Both the position numbers and the translations under genes were made by a program. 64,000 nucleotides of DNA from Escherichia coli (GTDB lineage Bacteria > Pseudomonadota > Gammaproteobacteria > Enterobacterales > Enterobacteriaceae), in NCBI RefSeq assembly GCF_003018115.1, contig NZ_CP027457.1. One strand, 5' to 3'. Position 1 is the stretch's first letter. Each line of letters opens with the position of its first letter. Under the pieces are notes generated by a model that was given only the letters and a program-made list of their open reading frames with translations, did no database searches and had not been told where the DNA came from. Below are positions 49,990-56,413 of this stretch, in pieces.

Positions 49990-51279
49990 TTACAAAGTGA
50001 AAGAGAGACGTAGCGCCAGCGCAGCCAGCGTCACAAACAGCACAGGCAGGGTCATGATAATCCCTGTACGGAAGTAATATCCCCAGCTGATAGTCATATT
50101 CTTCTGCGAAAGTACGTGCAGCCAGAGCAGTGTCGCCAGGCTACCAATCGGGGTGATTTTCGGCCCCAAATCGCAGCCAATCACGTTGGCATAAATCATC
50201 GCTTCTTTGATAACGCCAGATGCCGTGCTGCCATCAATGGACAACGCGCCAACCAGTACCGTCGGCATATTGTTCATAATAGAAGAGAGGAAGGCGGTGA
50301 GGAATCCGGTGCCGAGCGTCGCGGCCCACAGGCCGTTATCCGCCAGCACGTTGAGTACGCCAGAAAGATATTCCGTTAATCCGGCATTGCGCAGGCCATA
50401 AACCACCAGATACATGCCGAGCGAGAAGATGACAATCTGCCAGGGTGCACCGCGCAGGACTTTACCCGTATTAATCGCATGACCGCGTTTAGCGACGACA
50501 AACAAAATCAGCGCGCCCACAGCTGCAATGGCGCTCACCGGAATGCCGAGCGGTTCCAGGACGAAAAATCCCACCAACAGAAGCAGTAAAACAACCCAGC
50601 CTGTTTTGAACGTAGCAGGATCTTTAATCGCTTCTGCGGGAGATTTCAGCAGCGCCATGTCGTAGTTCTGCGGAATATCTTTGCGGAAATAGAGATGCAG
50701 CATCACCAGCGTGGCAACAATCGCGGCGATATCCACCGGCACCATCACCGAGGCATATTCGCGAAAGCCGAGGCCAAAGAAATCAGTGGAAACGATATTC
50801 ACCAGGTTGGAGACAATAAGCGGCAGGCTGGCGGTGTCGGCAATGAATCCGGCCGCCATCACGAACGCAAGCGTCGTGCCTTTACTGAATCCTAAGGCCA
50901 GCAGCATGGCGATGACAATCGGCGTCAAAATAAGCGCCGCGCCATCATTGGCAAACAGGGCGGCAACGGCGGCACCGAGCAGGACAATCCAGGTAAACAG
51001 CAAGCGACCGCGTCCATTGCCCCAGCGTGAAACGTGCAGCGCCGCCCATTCAAAAAAGCCGGACTCATCCAGCAGCAGGCTGATGATAATGACGGCAATA
51101 AACGCAGCCGTCGCGTTCCAGACGATATTCCACACCACCGGAATATCGCCCGGATGTACTACGCCCGTAACTAACGCCAGTACCGCGCCGAGCGTTGCAC
51201 TCCAGCCGATGCCTAAACCTTTCGGCTGCCAGATAACCAATACAATGGTCAGGACAAAGATAGCGCCTGCCAGTAACAT
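49990..51279 (-). CDS. arsB: Arsenite/antimonite efflux pump ArsB
   Basis: ORF 49990..51300; start likely [11 protein letters not shown] giving 429 aa; polytopic membrane protein. Confidence 0.93.
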
Positions 51280-51333
51280 AATGCCTCCCGGATAAAACAC
51301 ATGTGAAAATCCATATGTGTTTAGCTAAATTTT

Positions 51334-51687
51334 TTAACTGCAAATGTTCTTACTGTCTGCGGAACAGTTTTGTCGGGCCAGGTTGTGGACAATCGCCTGA
51401 ACCTTTTCCTGTTCACATCGCCAGGCTTCATCAATAATTTTCGCCGCCCATGCTGGAATATGCGGCGATAAGCGGTAATGAACCCACTTACCTTGCTTGC
51501 GGTCCAGCAATAGCCCGCTTTCCCGAAGTAACGCCAGGTGGCGGGATATCTTGGGCTGCGACTGATCGAGGGCAGTGCAGAGATCGCAGACGCATAACTC
51601 TCCCAGTTCGCTGAGCAGTAAAACGATGCCCAGACGGGTTTCATCAGCAAGAATTTTGAACAATTGGATGGGTAACAGAAATGACAT
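51334..51687 (-). CDS. arsR: Arsenite-responsive repressor ArsR
   Basis: 117-aa ORF with metalloid-binding ELCVCDLC motif and wHTH. Confidence 0.94.
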   Translation of the reverse strand: MSFLLPIQLFKILADETRLGIVLLLSELGELCVCDLCTALDQSQPKISRHLALLRESGLLLDRKQGKWVHYRLSPHIPAWAAKIIDEAWRCEQEKVQAIVHNLARQNCSADSKNICS

Positions 51688-51838
51688 ATTGCGCTCCTGA
51701 TTGTTGCAGGTAGTGTCTCTCTTCGAAGCGGATAAGTCAAAAACATATATGACTTAACGAATATGTAAGTGTAGAGAAAGGTATAGGTGTGAATTTTGAG
51801 TTGGGTATTCATTTGAAAGGAGGTCTGGATCAGGACGT

Positions 51839-51925
51839 AAAAAAACCGACTTTGCGTCGGTTTTTACTCTTCAGCCTGAGTTGGTGGCTCTGGCCGGAGT
51901 GAGAATGCCCACATCTAACGGTTCA
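51839..51925 (-). ncRNA. agrB: AgrB-like small RNA (antitoxin sRNA of the dinQ type I TA locus), approximate
   Basis: First copy of a roughly 235-bp tandem repeat; minus-strand hairpin (aaccgacgcaaagtcggtt) plus 7-U terminator; position next to arsR as recalled for K-12. Boundaries approximate. Confidence 0.5.
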
Positions 51926-52070
51926 ATACTATTAGCCAGTGGCTAACATTGCAAGCGTTAGCGATTTCTTCAGCTGGAGAAGGGACAGTTTGCTATACAT
52001 GTTGGTGAAAGAGGATTTATATACGTTCATCGGGTCGCTGCCGTACCAAGCCTTGTCCGAATCCGGACGT

Positions 52071-52158
52071 AAAAAAACCGACTTCGCGTCGGTTTTTTTA
52101 CTCTTCAGCCCAGAGTTGGTGGCTCTGGCTGGAGTGAGATAGCCATCATCTAACGCAT
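52071..52158 (-). ncRNA. agrA: AgrA-like small RNA, second repeat copy, approximate
   Basis: Second tandem copy with the same hairpin plus U-run terminator on the minus strand; divergent from the LexA-box promoter. Boundaries approximate. Confidence 0.5.
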
Positions 52159-52218
52159 CAATGCTAATACCATACTGAAACTATTGCAAGGACGTGCTGG
52201 TTCTATAACCTGCATGTA

Positions 52219-52234
52219 CTGTATGATTATCCAG
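52219..52234 (+). promoter_or_regulatory. LexA (SOS) box, putative dinQ promoter operator
   Basis: CTGTatgattatCCAG fits CTGT-N8-ACAG with one mismatch; lies in the agrA/dinQ divergent region, with a tataac -10-like hexamer just upstream. Confidence 0.55.
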
Positions 52235-52311
52235 TTAGCTCTGAGGCATTTTCACTCTGGCAATGCGCTTGACATCCTCCACGCCCTAAAGGACGTGGAT
52301 TCCTGCTACGT

Positions 52312-53532
52312 TCAGGCTGTCGCCTGAATCATTTCGGTGGGTTCCTGCTTCAACGGGCGGCCTGACTGCACCATCCCTCCACAGGCAAGAACGGCGTGCC
52401 CCGCCGCTAAAATGTTACGAGCGCCGTTTACATCGGCGTTCGCTGTATATCCACATACCGGGCATCTGAATTGACTTTGTGACAGGCGATTTTCTTTCGC
52501 TGTATGACCACAGCACGCGCAACGCTGGCTTGTGTACGCTGGCGGAACAGCAAGCACCTGACCGCCACGCCAGAGCTGCTTGTACTCAAGCTGGCGGCGC
52601 ATTTCATACCAGCCCTGATCCAGTATCGAACGGTTTAAACCTGATTTTGCCCGGACATTGCGCCCCGGCAGGCTGACCGTACCCGATGCTGACTTTGACA
52701 TGTTGCTGACCTTCAAATCCTCAATGACTATCATTGCGTGGTTTTTGCTGACGGTCGTTGTGACTTTGTGAAGGTAGTCCCTGCGGATATTTGCGATACA
52801 GGAATGCAGTCGCTGTATTTTGCGTTTCTGCTTCTGCCAGTTGTTGCTGAATTTGACCTTGCGGCTTAACTGTCGCTGAAGTCTCGCCAGCTTCTTCTGG
52901 TTTTTCTGAAAACTGTTTACAGGCTCAAAGGCTGTGCCATCTGACAGCGTGGCGAGTTTAGCCACGCCAGCATCCAGCCCGACCATTGATGCTGAAGGGT
53001 GAACCGGAGTTGATACTTCACTTTCTGTCTGAATACTGATGTACCACTTACCGCAGGACTGGCTGACCGTGACATTTTTCACAACACCCGTGACCTGACG
53101 GCTATTCCGGTAGCGCATCCAGCCCAGTTTCGGCAGAAAAATACGGCTGTTTTCCTGATCGAGCTTAACGCCCTGCGGGTAGCGGAATGCATCATTCTGT
53201 CCCCGCTTTTTGAATCGGGGAAAAGCAGCCCGCTTCTGGAAGAAGTTTTTGTAAGCCCGCTCAAGGTCTTTCAGTGACTGTTGCAATGGCTGTGAGGGCG
53301 AATCTTTAAGCCATTGCGTTTCAGTGGCGTTTTTCCACTCAACCAGCCAGGAAGCCATTTTCCCGTAAGGGATGTATTTATTACCGGCCTCATGATTCTC
53401 ATTCTGACGTGCCAGAGCACGATTGAAAACGAAACGACATGCGCCTGCGAAGCGCCTCATTTCACGCTCCTGTTGACCACCGGGTCTTAACTGGAATTTA
53501 AATGCCTGTAGTCGTTTCATGGGCCAAATCAT
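52312..53532 (-). CDS. tnpB: TnpB (OrfB_IS605) RuvC-like RNA-guided endonuclease / accessory transposase protein
   Basis: 406-aa ORF (start may be Met5, [13 protein letters not shown]); RuvC-like acidic residues in [23 protein letters not shown]; zinc-finger CACCGH...CPVCGY. Confidence 0.85.
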
Positions 53533-53542
53533 ACTTTGGCCT

Positions 53543-53958
53543 ATGAAAAAAGAAACCGATATCCGACGCGGAAGGCATTGTGTTTTCCTGATGCATGTTC
53601 ACCTGGTCTTCGTTACTAAATACCGACGTCAGATTTTTGACTATGACGCGACAGAAAAACTACGCACTTACTTTTCAAATGTATGTGCTGATTTTGAAGC
53701 TGAACTGGTTGAAATGGATGGCGAACCAGATCACGTCCATTTGTTAATTAACTATCCTCCCAAACTGGCGATATCCAGTCTGGTAAACAGCCTCAAAGGC
53801 GTATCGGGTAGGTTACTGCGACGAGATCGACCAGATATTGCAGCCAGGTATTACTACAAAGCGTTTTGTGGAGTCCTGGCTATTTTGCCAGTAGCTGCGG
53901 TGGTGCACCAATATCCATCATCCGCCAATACATTGAACAACAGCAAACACCTGGTTAG
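53543..53958 (+). pseudogene. tnpA: IS200/IS605 Y1 (HuH) transposase TnpA, apparently frameshifted
   Basis: N-terminal HuH motif (HVHLVF, KYRRQ) and second HxH (DHVHLLI) in the ORF frame; conserved C-terminus LWSPGYFASSCGGAPISIIRQYIEQQQ is in another frame from about 53866, ending at 53958. The 175-aa track ORF (to 54046) is a frame-fusion artefact. Confidence 0.55.
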
Positions 53959-54015
53959 GTGGAAAACCGCACCTTATATCCCCGCCCTGAATGAACGGGG
54001 TTTTACGGCGCACCG

Positions 54016-54093
54016 GATAAAGCAATCATCGTTCTTGGGGCGTTAATTGCGCTGCTGGAACTGATCCGCTTTCTGCTTCAGCTTCTGAACTGA
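54016..54093 (+). CDS. dinQ: DinQ-like type I toxin peptide ORF (codons 3-27 present; no in-frame start codon)
   Basis: Encodes DKAIIVLGALIALLELIRFLLQLLN*, matching recalled DinQ from residue 3; upstream in-frame codons (TGFYGAP) contain no ATG/GTG/TTG back to a stop at 53992; convergent with gor. Confidence 0.5.
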   Translation, partial: DKAIIVLGALIALLELIRFLLQLLN

Positions 54094-54110
54094 TAGCGGA
54101 AACGTAATTA

Positions 54111-54139
54111 AGGGCTAAGAGCACACTACTCTTAGCCCT
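54111..54139. terminator. Bidirectional stem-loop between dinQ and gor
   Basis: Perfect 11-bp stem agggctaagag/ctcttagccct with 7-nt loop between convergent ORFs. Confidence 0.6.
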
Positions 54140-54146
54140 TTAACAT

Positions 54147-55499
54147 TTAACGCATTGTCACAAACTCTTCTGCCGCCGTTGGGTGAATGGCGACGGTATT
54201 GTCGAAGTCTTTTTTGGTTGCGCCCATCTTCAGCGCCACCGCGAAGCCCTGCAACATTTCGTCCATACCAAAGCCAATGCCGTGAATACCGACAATCTTC
54301 TCTTCCGGTCCAACGCACACCAGCTTCATGCGGCACGGCTGGCGGTGAGTGGTGACGGCGGTATACATCGCGGTGAAAGAGGATTTATACACTTTCACCT
54401 GATCGTCGCCGTACTGCTCGCGCGCCTGCGGTTCCGTTAAACCAACAGTACCAATCGGCGGATGGCTGAAGACCACGGTCGGAATGTTGCTGTAATCCAG
54501 ATGCTCATCCGGCTTGTTATTAAATAGGCGTTCAGAGAGGCGGCGACCCGCTGCAACTGCCACCGGTGTCAGTTCTACTGCACCCGTGTTATCGCCCACC
54601 GCGTAAATACCTTCAATATTGGTGTTTTGATATTTATCGACGACGATATAGCCTTTTTCGTTAGTTTTAACGCCAGCGGCTTCCAGGTTGATGTTGTCAT
54701 TGGCAGGCTCGCGACCAATCGCCCAAATCAGGCAATCCACCGTTTCACTGCGACCATCTTCCAGCTCCAGCGTCAGGCTGCCATCGGCATTTTTCACTAC
54801 CGCTTTCGGGATGGCGTTGGTGTGCAACTGCGGACCTTCGGCGTTCATCACTTCGACCAGCGTTTCAGAGATCATCGGGTCGAAGCTGCGCAGCGGCGCA
54901 TGTTTACGCACAAACAGATGCGTTTTCGCGCCGAGGCCGTTAATCACGCCAGCCAGCTCAACGGCGATGTAACCCGCGCCAACAACCGCCACGCGCTCTG
55001 GCAAAGCAGGAAGGGCGAAGAAGCCATCAGAATCAATACCGTATTCCACGCCCGGAATATCCGGGTGGCTCGGACGACCGCCGGTGGCGATCAGAATATG
55101 ATCGGCCGTGATGGTTTCACCGTTAACTTCCAGCGTTTTGGCATCAACGAAGCGGGCAAAACCTTTGATTACATCAACGTTATTTTTACCGAGCACGTTT
55201 TCATAGGAAGTATGAATACGGTCGATATAGGCGGTACGGCTGGCGATCAACGTTTCCCAGTTGAATTTATTGATAGTGGTATCGAAACCATAATCCGGAC
55301 CGTACATGTGGATCGCTTCACGGATTTGCGCCGCGTGCCACATCACTTTCTTCGGTACGCAGCCGACGTTCACGCAGGTGCCGCCCAGCTCTTTGGCTTC
55401 AATCAGTGCGCATTTCTGGCCGTACATAGCCGCGCGGTTGATGGAGGCGATACCGCCGCTGCCGCCGCCGATGGCGATGTAATCATAGTGTTTAGTCAT
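54147..55499 (-). CDS. gor: Glutathione reductase Gor
   Basis: 450-aa ORF with FAD-binding GGGSGG and redox-active CVNVGC motifs. Confidence 0.95.
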
Positions 55500-55570
55500 G
55501 ACAGAGTGTCCTTATCGTTGATTACCGCGATTGTAGCGCGAGACGTAATAGGTGCCAGCAATGGCTGCAA

Positions 55571-56413
55571 TTACTCCGGCACGATCCAGCTTACGGTGGC
55601 GTGCCCGGTGCCTGCCGGAACCAGTTTGCTGTGCAGCCACGGCAGCACGTTATTCATCTGTTGTTCCAGCTTCCACGGCGGGTTAATCACAATCATGCCG
55701 GAAGCGGTCATGCCACGGCGATCGCTGTCTGGCAATACCGCCAGTTCAATTTGCAGAATTTTGCGAATGCCGGTCGCTTCCAGGTCGTGGATCATGCGCT
55801 TGATTTGCTGACGCAGCACCACCGGATACCACAATGCGTAAGTGCCCGTGGCGAAACGTTTGTAACCTTCTGCTATCCCACTGACTACCGCCTGATAGTC
55901 GGTTTTCATTTCATACGGCGGATCGATAAGGATTAAACCACGGCGAGAAACCGGCGGCAGTTTGGCCTTAAGCTGCTGGAAACCGTCGGCTTTTTCCACG
56001 CGCGCACGGCTGTCTTTCTGAAATTCAGAACGCAGCAACGGGTAATCGCTCGGGTGCAGTTCGGTCAGTTGCAGACTGTCCTGCTCGCGCAGTAGCTGGC
56101 GAGCAATCAACGGCGAACCGGGGTAGTAACGCAACTGACCGCTACGGTTGAAGTGTTTTACCACATTGATGTACGCCTCCAGCTCCGCAGGCAAATCGTC
56201 CTGCTGCCAGATACGGGCGATACCTTCGAGATATTCGCCGGTACGCTCGGCATGTTCGCTACCTAACTGATAACGCCCGGCCCCTGCGTGGGTGTCGAGA
56301 TAGAGAAACGGTTTATCTTTCTCTTTCAGCGACTCGATGATCAGGCTCTGAACGGTATGTTTAAGGACGTCGGCGTGGTTGCCAGCGTGAAAGCTGTGGC
56401 GATAACTGAGCAT
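55571..56413 (-). CDS. rlmJ: 23S rRNA m6A2030 methyltransferase RlmJ (YhiR)
   Basis: ORF 55571..56464; start at MLSYRHSFHAGNHADV gives 280 aa. Confidence 0.9.
   Translation of the reverse strand: MLSYRHSFHAGNHADVLKHTVQSLIIESLKEKDKPFLYLDTHAGAGRYQLGSEHAERTGEYLEGIARIWQQDDLPAELEAYINVVKHFNRSGQLRYYPGSPLIARQLLREQDSLQLTELHPSDYPLLRSEFQKDSRARVEKADGFQQLKAKLPPVSRRGLILIDPPYEMKTDYQAVVSGIAEGYKRFATGTYALWYPVVLRQQIKRMIHDLEATGIRKILQIELAVLPDSDRRGMTASGMIVINPPWKLEQQMNNVLPWLHSKLVPAGTGHATVSWIVPE

Follow-up and report, generated by a model that had tools for sequence, protein, structure and literature searches.

A natural allele of the Escherichia coli dinQ/agrAB locus carrying an IS609-type element and lacking 166 bp of the toxin gene

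In E. coli K-12 the toxin gene dinQ and its antisense RNA genes agrA and agrB lie between arsR and gor (Weel-Sneve 2013, PMC3567139; Kristiansen 2016, PMC5066626). The positions of the elements that control dinQ are given in these two papers, and the earlier one names three ATG starts upstream of the published GUG. IS609, for example the copy next to ydcO in K-12, is a 1748-bp element with divergent tnpA and tnpB/insQ genes, with subterminal hairpins and no terminal inverted repeats, and it inserts 3' of TTAT without target duplication. The homing systems formed by TnpB and omegaRNA in ISDra2 and ISGst are a third point of reference: there the right end and the 3' end of tnpB overlap, the guide comes from the right-end flank, and the target acts as TAM (Karvelis 2021, PMC8612924; Meers 2023).

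A fourth comparison is with hok/sok of K-12. Chromosomal hok/sok loci are reportedly inactivated by IS150 and IS186, which are said to lie beside the hok frames without removing the start of the gene. These would likewise be cases in which an insertion sequence silenced a chromosomal type I toxin and spared the antisense RNA gene, although the toxin family and the IS families differ from dinQ and IS609. Our literature search found no paper that links IS609 with dinQ.

The window analysed here, i.e., the whole stretch of 64,000 nucleotides of E. coli DNA from contig NZ_CP027457.1, holds these components at a single locus. The allele is very probably a dinQ null, made by an old, non-autonomous IS609-type element.

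What is left of dinQ and of its antisense RNAs

The initial annotation placed an insertion sequence inside the dinQ/agrAB locus, and alignment with K-12 agrees: the element lies between the LexA box and the end of the dinQ frame, and is missing from K-12 and from nearly all other E. coli. The same alignment defined the junctions and revealed a deletion of 166 bp. The mRNA numbering used below takes the published GUG as G195 (PMC5066626) and was verified in the sequence against U16-C28 and U44; it puts +1 at 52234, the last base of the LexA box. The parts of dinQ that persist are the following.

52219..52234, plus strand: LexA box of the dinQ promoter, CTGTATGATTATCCAG, of the form CTG-N10-CAG; exactly where first reported and identical to K-12
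52234..52268, plus strand: dinQ leader remnant, +1 to +35, which keeps "sequence 1" (U16-C28); homology with K-12 stops at 52268
54017..54093, plus strand: dinQ coding remnant, from the second base of codon 3 through codon 27 and the stop; start codon and Shine-Dalgarno sequence both absent
54110..54140, plus strand: dinQ terminator hairpin, retained and identical to K-12; a terminator scan gave the same hairpin on the minus strand

The 166 bp absent relative to K-12 correspond to +36 to +201 of the mRNA. With them went the +44 processing site, the AgrB target (G88-A119), the Shine-Dalgarno sequence (G184-G187), all four start codons (the GUG and the three upstream ATGs) and the first 2.3 codons. 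As for the DinQ-like reading frame proposed at 54016..54093, its coding part is genuine, being in frame with codons 3-27 of K-12 DinQ and identical to them save for one synonymous base, but its start codon is absent. Upstream, the first in-frame stop is the TGA at 53992-53994, after which no ATG, GTG or TTG occurs, and no ORF ending at 54093 is listed. RefSeq annotates here a 22-aa "dinQ" that would start at ATC (54025); the "DinQ" protein in these genomes is to be read as a remnant.

Does any route to the toxin persist? It had been proposed that a simple insertion merely parts an intact DinQ frame from its SOS promoter, and that read-through from tnpA could provide a new transcriptional input. 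The two genes do share a strand, and no strong plus-strand terminator is predicted between tnpA and the remnant. However, the gene was destroyed rather than split, its frame is closed upstream by the TGA, tnpA is itself a pseudogene whose frameshifted ORF enters the remnant in a different frame, and for the canonical DinQ peptide the proposal is already refuted. Next to no credence can be given to it. Because the Shine-Dalgarno sequence, the starts and the leader elements are missing, read-through from tnpA would be unable to yield DinQ. A fusion of TnpA with DinQ was also considered and rejected: the C-terminal part of tnpA shares its frame with dinQ but is separated from it by TAG 53956 and TGA 53992, and the 175-aa tnpA ORF is in another frame. 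As far as sequence can tell, no DinQ can be made from this allele, weak initiation at a non-canonical codon of the remnant being formally conceivable. The net effect, a disarmed toxin, was thus correctly foreseen, with the loss of the Shine-Dalgarno sequence and all start codons as its cause.

The antisense side of the locus has fared better.

51837..51918, minus strand: agr repeat distal to dinQ (K-12 agrB position); Rfam RF02891 AgrB, 79.5 bits (gathering score 40)
52069..52153, minus strand: agr repeat proximal to dinQ (K-12 agrA position); Rfam RF02891 AgrB, 90.7 bits

Both matches exceed the gathering score, in line with the earlier description of the antitoxin repeats as intact. They are of the type found in strain A30 and not the agrA/agrB pair of K-12: the 5' part of the distal repeat is of the A30 and not the K-12 agrB type, and the proximal repeat matches K-12 agrA at 77 of 85 positions. 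Both agr antisense RNA genes are, by prediction, orphaned and without a target. Decay of the orphans was looked for and is not visible, the repeats being nearly identical to those of A30, in which dinQ is intact.

The IS609-type element and its genes

The element ends were set by alignment with eight other copies, six located elsewhere and two also at the dinQ locus. These move the bounds first given, 52261-54012, to 52269 and 54016.

52269..54016, minus strand: IS609-type element of 1748 bp, whose top strand corresponds to the minus strand of the window
starting at 54016, minus strand: left end of the element, CCGGTGCG...
finishing at 52269, minus strand: right end of the element, ...GATGTCAA
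52278..52299, minus strand: right-end subterminal hairpin, a DNA fold of 9 bp and -7.7 kcal/mol, conserved among copies
53980..54000, minus strand: left-end subterminal hairpin, a DNA fold with the loop variant GAATGAAC
54017..54021, minus strand: insertion target and presumed TAM (TTTAT#1), TTTAT on the element strand and ATAAA on the plus strand, in dinQ codons 3-4
53543..53958, plus strand: tnpA pseudogene (Y1 HUH transposase), with ORFs 53519-54046 and 53866-53958
52312..53520, minus strand: tnpB (insQ type), intact, 402 aa; NF040570 guided_TnpB, 390.6 bits

Over its 1748 bp the element is 97.0-97.7% identical to IS609 copies, which occur in 5015 of the 5426 complete E. coli genomes in which such copies and the dinQ allele were counted, K-12-derived strains included. 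It belongs to the IS200/IS605 family and is of the IS609 type, a name taken from the RefSeq labels (IS609 or insQ) of near-identical copies. The two same-strand flanking hairpins seen initially do fold; their folding energies are not significant by themselves (z of -1.5 and -0.8), and both occur at the same subterminal positions in the eight other copies. No inverted repeat linking the two element ends was reported. Compared with other IS609 copies, that of the window has about 20 private substitutions, the variant of the left-end loop (columns 53992 and 53994) and a frameshifted tnpA. A possible trace of a second copy in the window, an 18-mer at 60078-60095 that is similar to the right end but for 3 mismatches, lies inside a 489-aa ORF and was judged a chance match.

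Profiles confirm both members of the divergent tnpA/tnpB pair that had been recognized from the start. PF01797 matches the 175-aa tnpA ORF and, with one frameshift repaired, tnpA scores 147.6 bits against the IS200/IS605 transposase profile NF033573. The frameshift is a 1-bp deletion at about 53860, where a G is missing relative to seven other copies, and it shifts the C-terminal part (SPGYFASSCGGAP...RQYIEQQ) into another frame; RefSeq likewise labels tnpA "frameshifted" in F9792. The catalytic Tyr is presumably in this part, so that the element would be unable to move by itself. With tnpA not open through this part, it is predicted to be non-autonomous.

The companion gene, tnpB, is in better condition; a further in-frame ATG is found at 53532. 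The protein aligns with ISDra2 TnpB (8bf8/8exa) over 370 residues (E 9e-57), from which it differs by 15 extra residues inserted after the RuvC-II glutamate and before the zinc finger. At conserved positions the alignment shows matches for both CxxC pairs and for the acidic residues in the motifs GLDAG, IEDL and ADVNGARNI; we take these acidic residues to be the RuvC triad (D-E-D). The exact TnpB protein has the gor-dinQ-ars context in all 24 of the 24 contigs read, and no other. Its dN/dS of 0.45-0.65, from 13-23 differences, is not clearly below the values of other copies, and selection on tnpB is weakly supported.

Origin of the 166-bp loss and of the allele

How does IS609 normally insert? 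At six independent insertion sites the left-end flank is TTAT in 6/6 and TTTAT in 5/6. Three other insertions (yajI, yfeD-gltX and yeaQ-yoaG) are simple, in that the joined flanks match the empty sites as one 400-bp piece, and these three seamless reconstructions give insertion 3' of TTAT without target duplication.

The dinQ copy follows the first half of this rule. Its insertion point is 3' of the TTTAT that lies within dinQ codons 3-4, and its top strand runs antisense to the gene. Unlike the three simple insertions, it comes with the 166-bp loss, and its right end abuts the base after the second TTTAT of the wild type (TTTAT#2, at +36). Both breakpoints are therefore exactly 3' of the insertion target of the element. 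In the 321 nt around the site, the element strand has three TTAT and two TTTAT, TTTAT#2 being the first one 3' of TTTAT#1; A30, the closest wild-type allele, has the same two TTTAT sites. The position of both breakpoints, together with the simplicity of the other three insertions, ties the loss to the transposon, and we infer that the allele originated by transposon-linked events at the two TTTAT sites.

Three routes fit: (i) insertion at TTTAT#1, after which TnpA would join the right end 3' of the next downstream TTTAT; (ii) insertion at TTTAT#2, which would be followed by deletion between the 6-nt repeats TTTATC; (iii) insertion at both sites, which would be followed by recombination between the two copies. 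Intermediate alleles were sought. A simple insertion at either site occurs in none of the complete E. coli genomes. For a deletion without IS, the best 25 matches to the joined flanks all cover 565-566 bp in two pieces, as in the wild type. Scans with the pattern ACGGCGCACCGGATAAASSMWTY, which stands for a left-end junction at one or the other TTTAT, gave 0 matches in metagenome contigs and 0 in one-genome-per-species contigs. The searched sets gave no intermediate allele, and any of the three orders of events may be the right one.

The first route deserves a closer look. We hold it a tentative possibility that the loss is the footprint of an adjacent deletion from target to target by TnpA, a reaction not described for IS200/IS605 transposases and of which we found no description in the literature. 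TnpA acting on the unexcised element would let the left-end guide capture the next downstream TTTAT on the same single strand; the right-end 3'-OH would then be joined to the captured site, and the intervening segment would be expelled as a circle. The outcome would be an element flanked by two legitimate junctions.

Alternatively, the loss may have had nothing to do with the element, as an ordinary spontaneous deletion whose endpoints met the IS boundary and a TTTAT by coincidence. Deletions adjoining IS elements are common in general, and the left-end side offers 6 nt of microhomology (TTTATC) usable by any slippage process. The breakpoints, however, fall exactly at TnpA cleavage positions and leave both element ends complete, and with two TTTAT in 321 nt a random endpoint there has a chance of about 1 in 100 or less. 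A chance deletion is accordingly unlikely, and a transposon-linked origin is preferred.

Another question is how often the allele arose. It is present in 6 of the 5426 complete genomes, and it occurs in enterotoxigenic O169:H41 and at least two other backgrounds. Six genomes cover at least 80% of the query, all with identical junctions, and at 98% or above the 60-nt left end has matches in six genomes only. The left-end loop variant is common to the window copy and to the divergent copy of GF4-3; as it is confined to copies at the dinQ locus, the allele probably arose once.

The opposite view, an independent insertion in the O169:H41/window lineage and in GF4-3 with the same deletion each time, has some points in its favor. 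The two copies differ at 48 of 1748 positions, that of GF4-3 is nearer in raw distance to copies at other loci (29-36 differences), and the two tnpA frameshifts are at different places. Yet the about 20 private changes of the window copy inflate its distance to every other copy, and the element has diverged by 2.7%, the same order as its flanks (gor side 1.4%, ars side 3.5%), a pattern to be expected of copies that diverged together with their hosts. Moreover, the change at 53992 and 53994 is shared, and among the genomes detected only the six carry it. Repeated origin is thus rather improbable; were it true, it would point to a deterministic reaction.

The predicted guide and the meaning of the allele

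In the TnpB family the guide is the flank after the right end, and the TAM is the insertion target (Meers et al. 2023, bioRxiv 10.1101/2023.03.14.532601). Transferred to the present copy, for which omegaRNA, TAM and cleavage are all predictions, this mechanism gives two features.

52269..52440, minus strand: predicted omegaRNA scaffold, which shares sequence with the tnpB 3' end and the right end
52249..52268, minus strand: predicted guide segment of the omegaRNA, GCGCATTGCCAGAGTGAAAA, immediately 3' of the right end, placed by position and family mechanism

In Rfam the omegaRNA region has sub-threshold matches only, to HgcC (24 bits against 50) and sot0042 (17.5 bits against 88), RNAs adjoining tnpB, and the z-score of its RNA fold is a modest -2.2. 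An omegaRNA made from tnpB and the right end, both kept intact, would have as its guide GCGCATTGCCAGAGTG... The sequence at the guide position directly follows TTTAT in wild-type dinQ, and by analogy with the family the copy would consequently target both the leaders of intact dinQ alleles and the joint left by its own excision. As a result of the 166-bp loss, TAM and guide together correspond to the wild-type leader at TTTAT#2, and it is TTTAT#1 that would serve at the excision joint.

Is this more than a coincidence of placement? Co-option by the host may be imagined, with tnpB and its omegaRNA acting, e.g., as an SOS-linked regulator or as a guard that cuts incoming wild-type dinQ DNA. In both divergent lineages tnpB is intact and tnpA was broken independently, the LexA-controlled promoter of dinQ is now directed into the right end and tnpB, antisense to them, and the predicted guide matches wild-type dinQ beside TTTAT. 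Against this, IS609 copies at other loci usually combine an intact tnpB with a broken tnpA, as does the family generally (Meers et al. 2023), the guide-target match follows automatically from the insertion mode, and tnpB does not clearly stand out in dN/dS. Co-option is very unlikely, and the match of the guide to the disrupted gene is a standard by-product of how the element inserts. Even so, the copy offers a natural case of a TnpB guide pointing at the wild-type allele of the gene that its element disrupted.

In summary, the allele is a new instance of known things, a rare natural toxin knockout and otherwise ordinary. Rebuilt as a substrate, its two TTTAT breakpoints could be used to examine whether adjacent deletions are a product of IS200/IS605 transposases. 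For the biology of E. coli, it represents a clean, naturally occurring knockout of a membrane toxin induced by SOS, in the clinically relevant enterotoxigenic O169:H41 lineage, and comparison with close relatives bearing an intact dinQ could reveal the role of DinQ in the cell.

Loss of the dinQ toxin gene

The arsB-arsR ... gor interval of E. coli is present in the window in the orientation opposite to that of K-12. From left to right it holds arsR, two agr repeats (the antisense sRNA genes), the dinQ promoter, tnpB, tnpA, the C-terminal dinQ codons with their terminator, and gor.

Features of the arsR-gor interval
51334-51687, minus strand: arsR
51837-51918: agr repeat (Rfam AgrB, 79.5 bits, exceeding the gathering score)
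52069-52153: agr repeat (Rfam AgrB, 90.7 bits, exceeding the gathering score)
52219-52234: LexA box CTGTATGATTATCCAG of the dinQ promoter, the same as in K-12
52312-53520, minus strand: tnpB, 402 aa (NF040570, 390.6 bits)
53543-53958, plus strand: tnpA, divergent from tnpB (NF033573, 147.6 bits after frameshift repair)
Between tnpA and gor: dinQ remnant, the C-terminal 25 codons and the terminator
54147-55499, minus strand: gor

The alignment to K-12 proposed in the initial annotation places the junctions at 52268 and 54017: homology on the promoter side ends at the former (...GGCAATGCGC) and restarts on the gor side at the latter (ATAAAGCAATC...), and the 166 bp of K-12 dinQ between these points are absent from the window. 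Counting from the dinQ GUG start as G195 (PMC5066626) puts the transcription start at 52234, and the sequence then shows the U16-C28 element and U44 at their published positions; the lost segment is dinQ mRNA +36 to +201. With it have gone the +44 processing site, which activates the mRNA (PMC5066626), the AgrB target G88-A119, structural elements 2-4, the SD (G184-G187), the GUG start and the first 2.3 codons, together with the three upstream ATGs of longer DinQ forms given in PMC3567139. The remnant frame is closed upstream by a TGA (53992-53994), with no in-frame ATG, GTG or TTG found between this stop and the remnant, and the 22-aa "DinQ" that RefSeq lists in matching genomes would need to start at ATC, without an SD. 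Because the segment with the SD and start codons is absent and the remnant frame has no start, the toxin gene is, as judged from its sequence, destroyed, and no translatable dinQ is left.

The core idea of the initial annotation, that the insertion disarms the toxin, was right, but dinQ itself is lost (166 bp, including the start codon) and not merely separated from its promoter. The suggested re-expression of the toxin by read-through from tnpA is removed by the loss of the SD and starts and by the closed frame upstream. The leader elements and start codon are gone, the LexA promoter and antisense genes are present, and dinQ/agrAB is predicted to form no working toxin-antitoxin system here. 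Natural silencing by IS elements has a precedent among chromosomal type I toxin loci, the hok loci of K-12.

Both agr repeats are intact, yet no target is left for them; they are of the type found in strain A30, which carries the closest wild-type dinQ allele. In the A30 leader the antisense target (reverse complement of TTAGATGACGACTATCTCAC) best fits the promoter-proximal repeat, while the K-12 leader carries the target TTAGATAAGAACTCTCTCAC, a fit to the distal repeat (agrB). From lineage to lineage the toxin leader and the antitoxin seem to vary together, and which of the repeats is the working antitoxin may differ as well. Between the repeats, 53 nt (51994-52046) are 81% identical to 54362-54414 within the 3' part of gor, and for this reason the arsR-gor repeats may have arisen long ago by duplication of the dinQ-gor end. 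Other Rfam matches above the gathering score in the window are GadY (26020-26133), ES205 sRNA (31912-31983) and the chuA/shuA 5' UTR thermoregulator (41652-41683).

The IS609 element

Alignment of the window with six copies inserted elsewhere in the chromosome and two more at the dinQ locus defined the ends of the element. On the window plus strand it runs from 52269 (TTGACATCC...) to 54016 (...GCGCACCGG), 1748 bp, which corrects the ends first placed at 52261 and 54012. Its top strand is the window minus strand, on which the left end begins CCGGTGCG and the right end closes GATGTCAA; TTAT precedes the left end at each of the six independent sites, extended to TTTAT in five of them. Copies found in 5015 of 5426 complete E. 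coli genomes are 97.0-97.7% identical to it, and the near-identical ones include the K-12-type copy adjoining ydcO and others that RefSeq names IS609; on the strength of this match, the element is the well-known IS609. All of the tested structural features of an IS609-type IS200/IS605 member are present except autonomy. The two same-strand hairpins fold as originally described, at 52278-52299 and 53980-54000; their folding energies by themselves are not significant, and what supports them is their conservation, at matching subterminal positions, in every other copy. An 18-mer at 60078-60095, considered as a second right end, has three mismatches, lies within a 489-aa ORF and was judged a chance match.

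In tnpA, one G near 53860, present in every other copy compared, is missing. The frameshift yields two ORFs (53519-54046 and 53866-53958) and leaves out of frame the C-terminal segment (...SPGYFASSCGGAP...RQYIEQQ), which we take to hold the catalytic tyrosine. RefSeq flags the same tnpA as "frameshifted" in the O169:H41 strain F9792, and the element is, by its sequence, non-autonomous.

The tnpB frame is open and aligns with ISDra2 TnpB (8bf8/8exa, E 9e-57), with the acidic residues of GLDAG, IEDL and ADVNGARNI, presumably the RuvC triad, and both CxxC pairs, presumably the zinc finger, at conserved positions. Its dN/dS is 0.45-0.65, based on few changes. An intact tnpB with a broken tnpA is the norm among IS609 copies at other loci, and is usual for the wider family too (Meers 2023). 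The window tnpB starts with ATG vs GTG in seven copies outside the window/F9792 allele, and has an additional in-frame ATG at 53532; the 22-bp tnpA-tnpB spacer holds a cluster of several substitutions private to the window copy. Between the tnpB 3' end and the right end, Rfam matches to tnpB-adjacent RNAs (HgcC, sot0042) are all sub-threshold and the fold is slightly better than that of shuffled sequence (z -2.2). From position and family knowledge, an omegaRNA across the tnpB 3' end and the right end is likely.

Junctions and origin of the deletion

On the element strand, K-12 reads ...GATTGC-TTTAT|CAATCACC...(166 nt)...GCG-TTTAT|GCGCATTGCC..., and what the element has replaced begins directly 3' of the first TTTAT (dinQ codons 3-4) and ends with the last base of the second (in the leader, at +36). 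The left end is preceded by the first TTTAT, and the right end abuts the sequence that follows the second in the wild type. Given this exact TTTAT-to-TTTAT exchange, both junctions are legitimate IS609 junctions. The 321 nt of element strand examined contain three TTAT in all, the second TTTAT being the first downstream of the first, and A30 has the same two sites. Because the IS609 insertions at yajI, yfeD-gltX and yeaQ-yoaG are seamless, their joined flanks each matching the empty site as a single 400-bp piece, the dinQ loss appears unusual for IS609; it also appears tied to target specificity.

How did the deletion arise? Three routes fit the junctions. Does it reflect insertion at the first TTTAT, after which TnpA linked the 3'-OH of the right end to the position following the second, with the same cleavage pair as in the normal integration step? 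Or, did insertion at the second TTTAT precede a deletion between the two occurrences of a direct repeat of 6 nt, TTTATC, formed by the first TTTAT with the next dinQ base and by the second with the first left-end base? Perhaps both sites were occupied, and the two copies then recombined. On the right-end side microhomology is absent. No simple insertion at either TTTAT is present among the 5426 complete E. coli genomes, the best 25 matches to an IS-less deletion joint are all wild type with no deletion-only allele among them, and scans of metagenome contigs and one-genome-per-species contigs gave no left-end junction at either TTTAT. One point, a harmful intermediate, speculatively favors a two-step history: insertion at +36 would give a dinQ RNA without the inhibitory 5' element, resembling the active +44 form, and since read-through from the element into such an RNA could harm, a second, inactivating deletion would have been favored.

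Distribution of the allele and predicted TnpB targeting

The same two junctions occur in six of the 5426 complete genomes, five of O169:H41 type and GF4-3 (guinea fowl). The index of the wider assembly collection lists this exact TnpB protein in 275 blocks; all 24 contigs read with it have the rlmJ-gor-dinQ remnant-IS-arsRBC context, and one carrier, assembly GCA_028184205.1, is 100% identical to the window across 7.2 kb. Compared with the O169:H41 genomes, the window differs at ~60 sites in arsB/arsR and at two across the IS and gor; compared with F9792, ~60 substitutions lie in 50602-51663 (arsB/arsR) and two differences in 51700-55650. This divergence beside near-identity indicates that the arsR end is a recombination boundary between the window and F9792, and the same dinQ::IS609 allele is therefore present in at least two ars backgrounds.

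The GF4-3 copy differs from that of the window at 48 of 1748 positions, and its tnpA frameshift is its own, at another place; the two copies have in common a left-end loop change (53992, 53994) that is confined, within the genomes detected, to the six with these junctions. We read the shared junctions, the exclusive loop change and the diverged copies as traces of a single old event; the resulting allele would since have diverged along with its hosts or been moved by recombination. In the window and GF4-3 lineages tnpB is open in both and tnpA was broken twice. The GF4-3 locus has a single agr repeat and is ~234 bp shorter.

The LexA-controlled promoter is now directed into the right end, in antisense orientation to tnpB, and an SOS-induced antisense transcript over the predicted omegaRNA region is possible. 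By the TnpB/omegaRNA mechanism used for the guide (Meers 2023), TnpB from the dinQ-locus copy would load an omegaRNA with the flank GCGCATTGCCAGAGTG... as guide. Because this flank directly follows the second TTTAT in wild-type dinQ, the enzyme would cut both intact dinQ leaders and the joint left by excision of the element itself. The predicted match to wild-type dinQ is a standard by-product of the insertion mode, with no special adaptation. Karvelis 2021 is reportedly also a source of the TnpB/omegaRNA mechanism.

The element and the locus are otherwise of known kinds, and only the deletion between two target sites is to some degree new. Bounded in this way, it may be a record of TnpA-mediated adjacent deletion.
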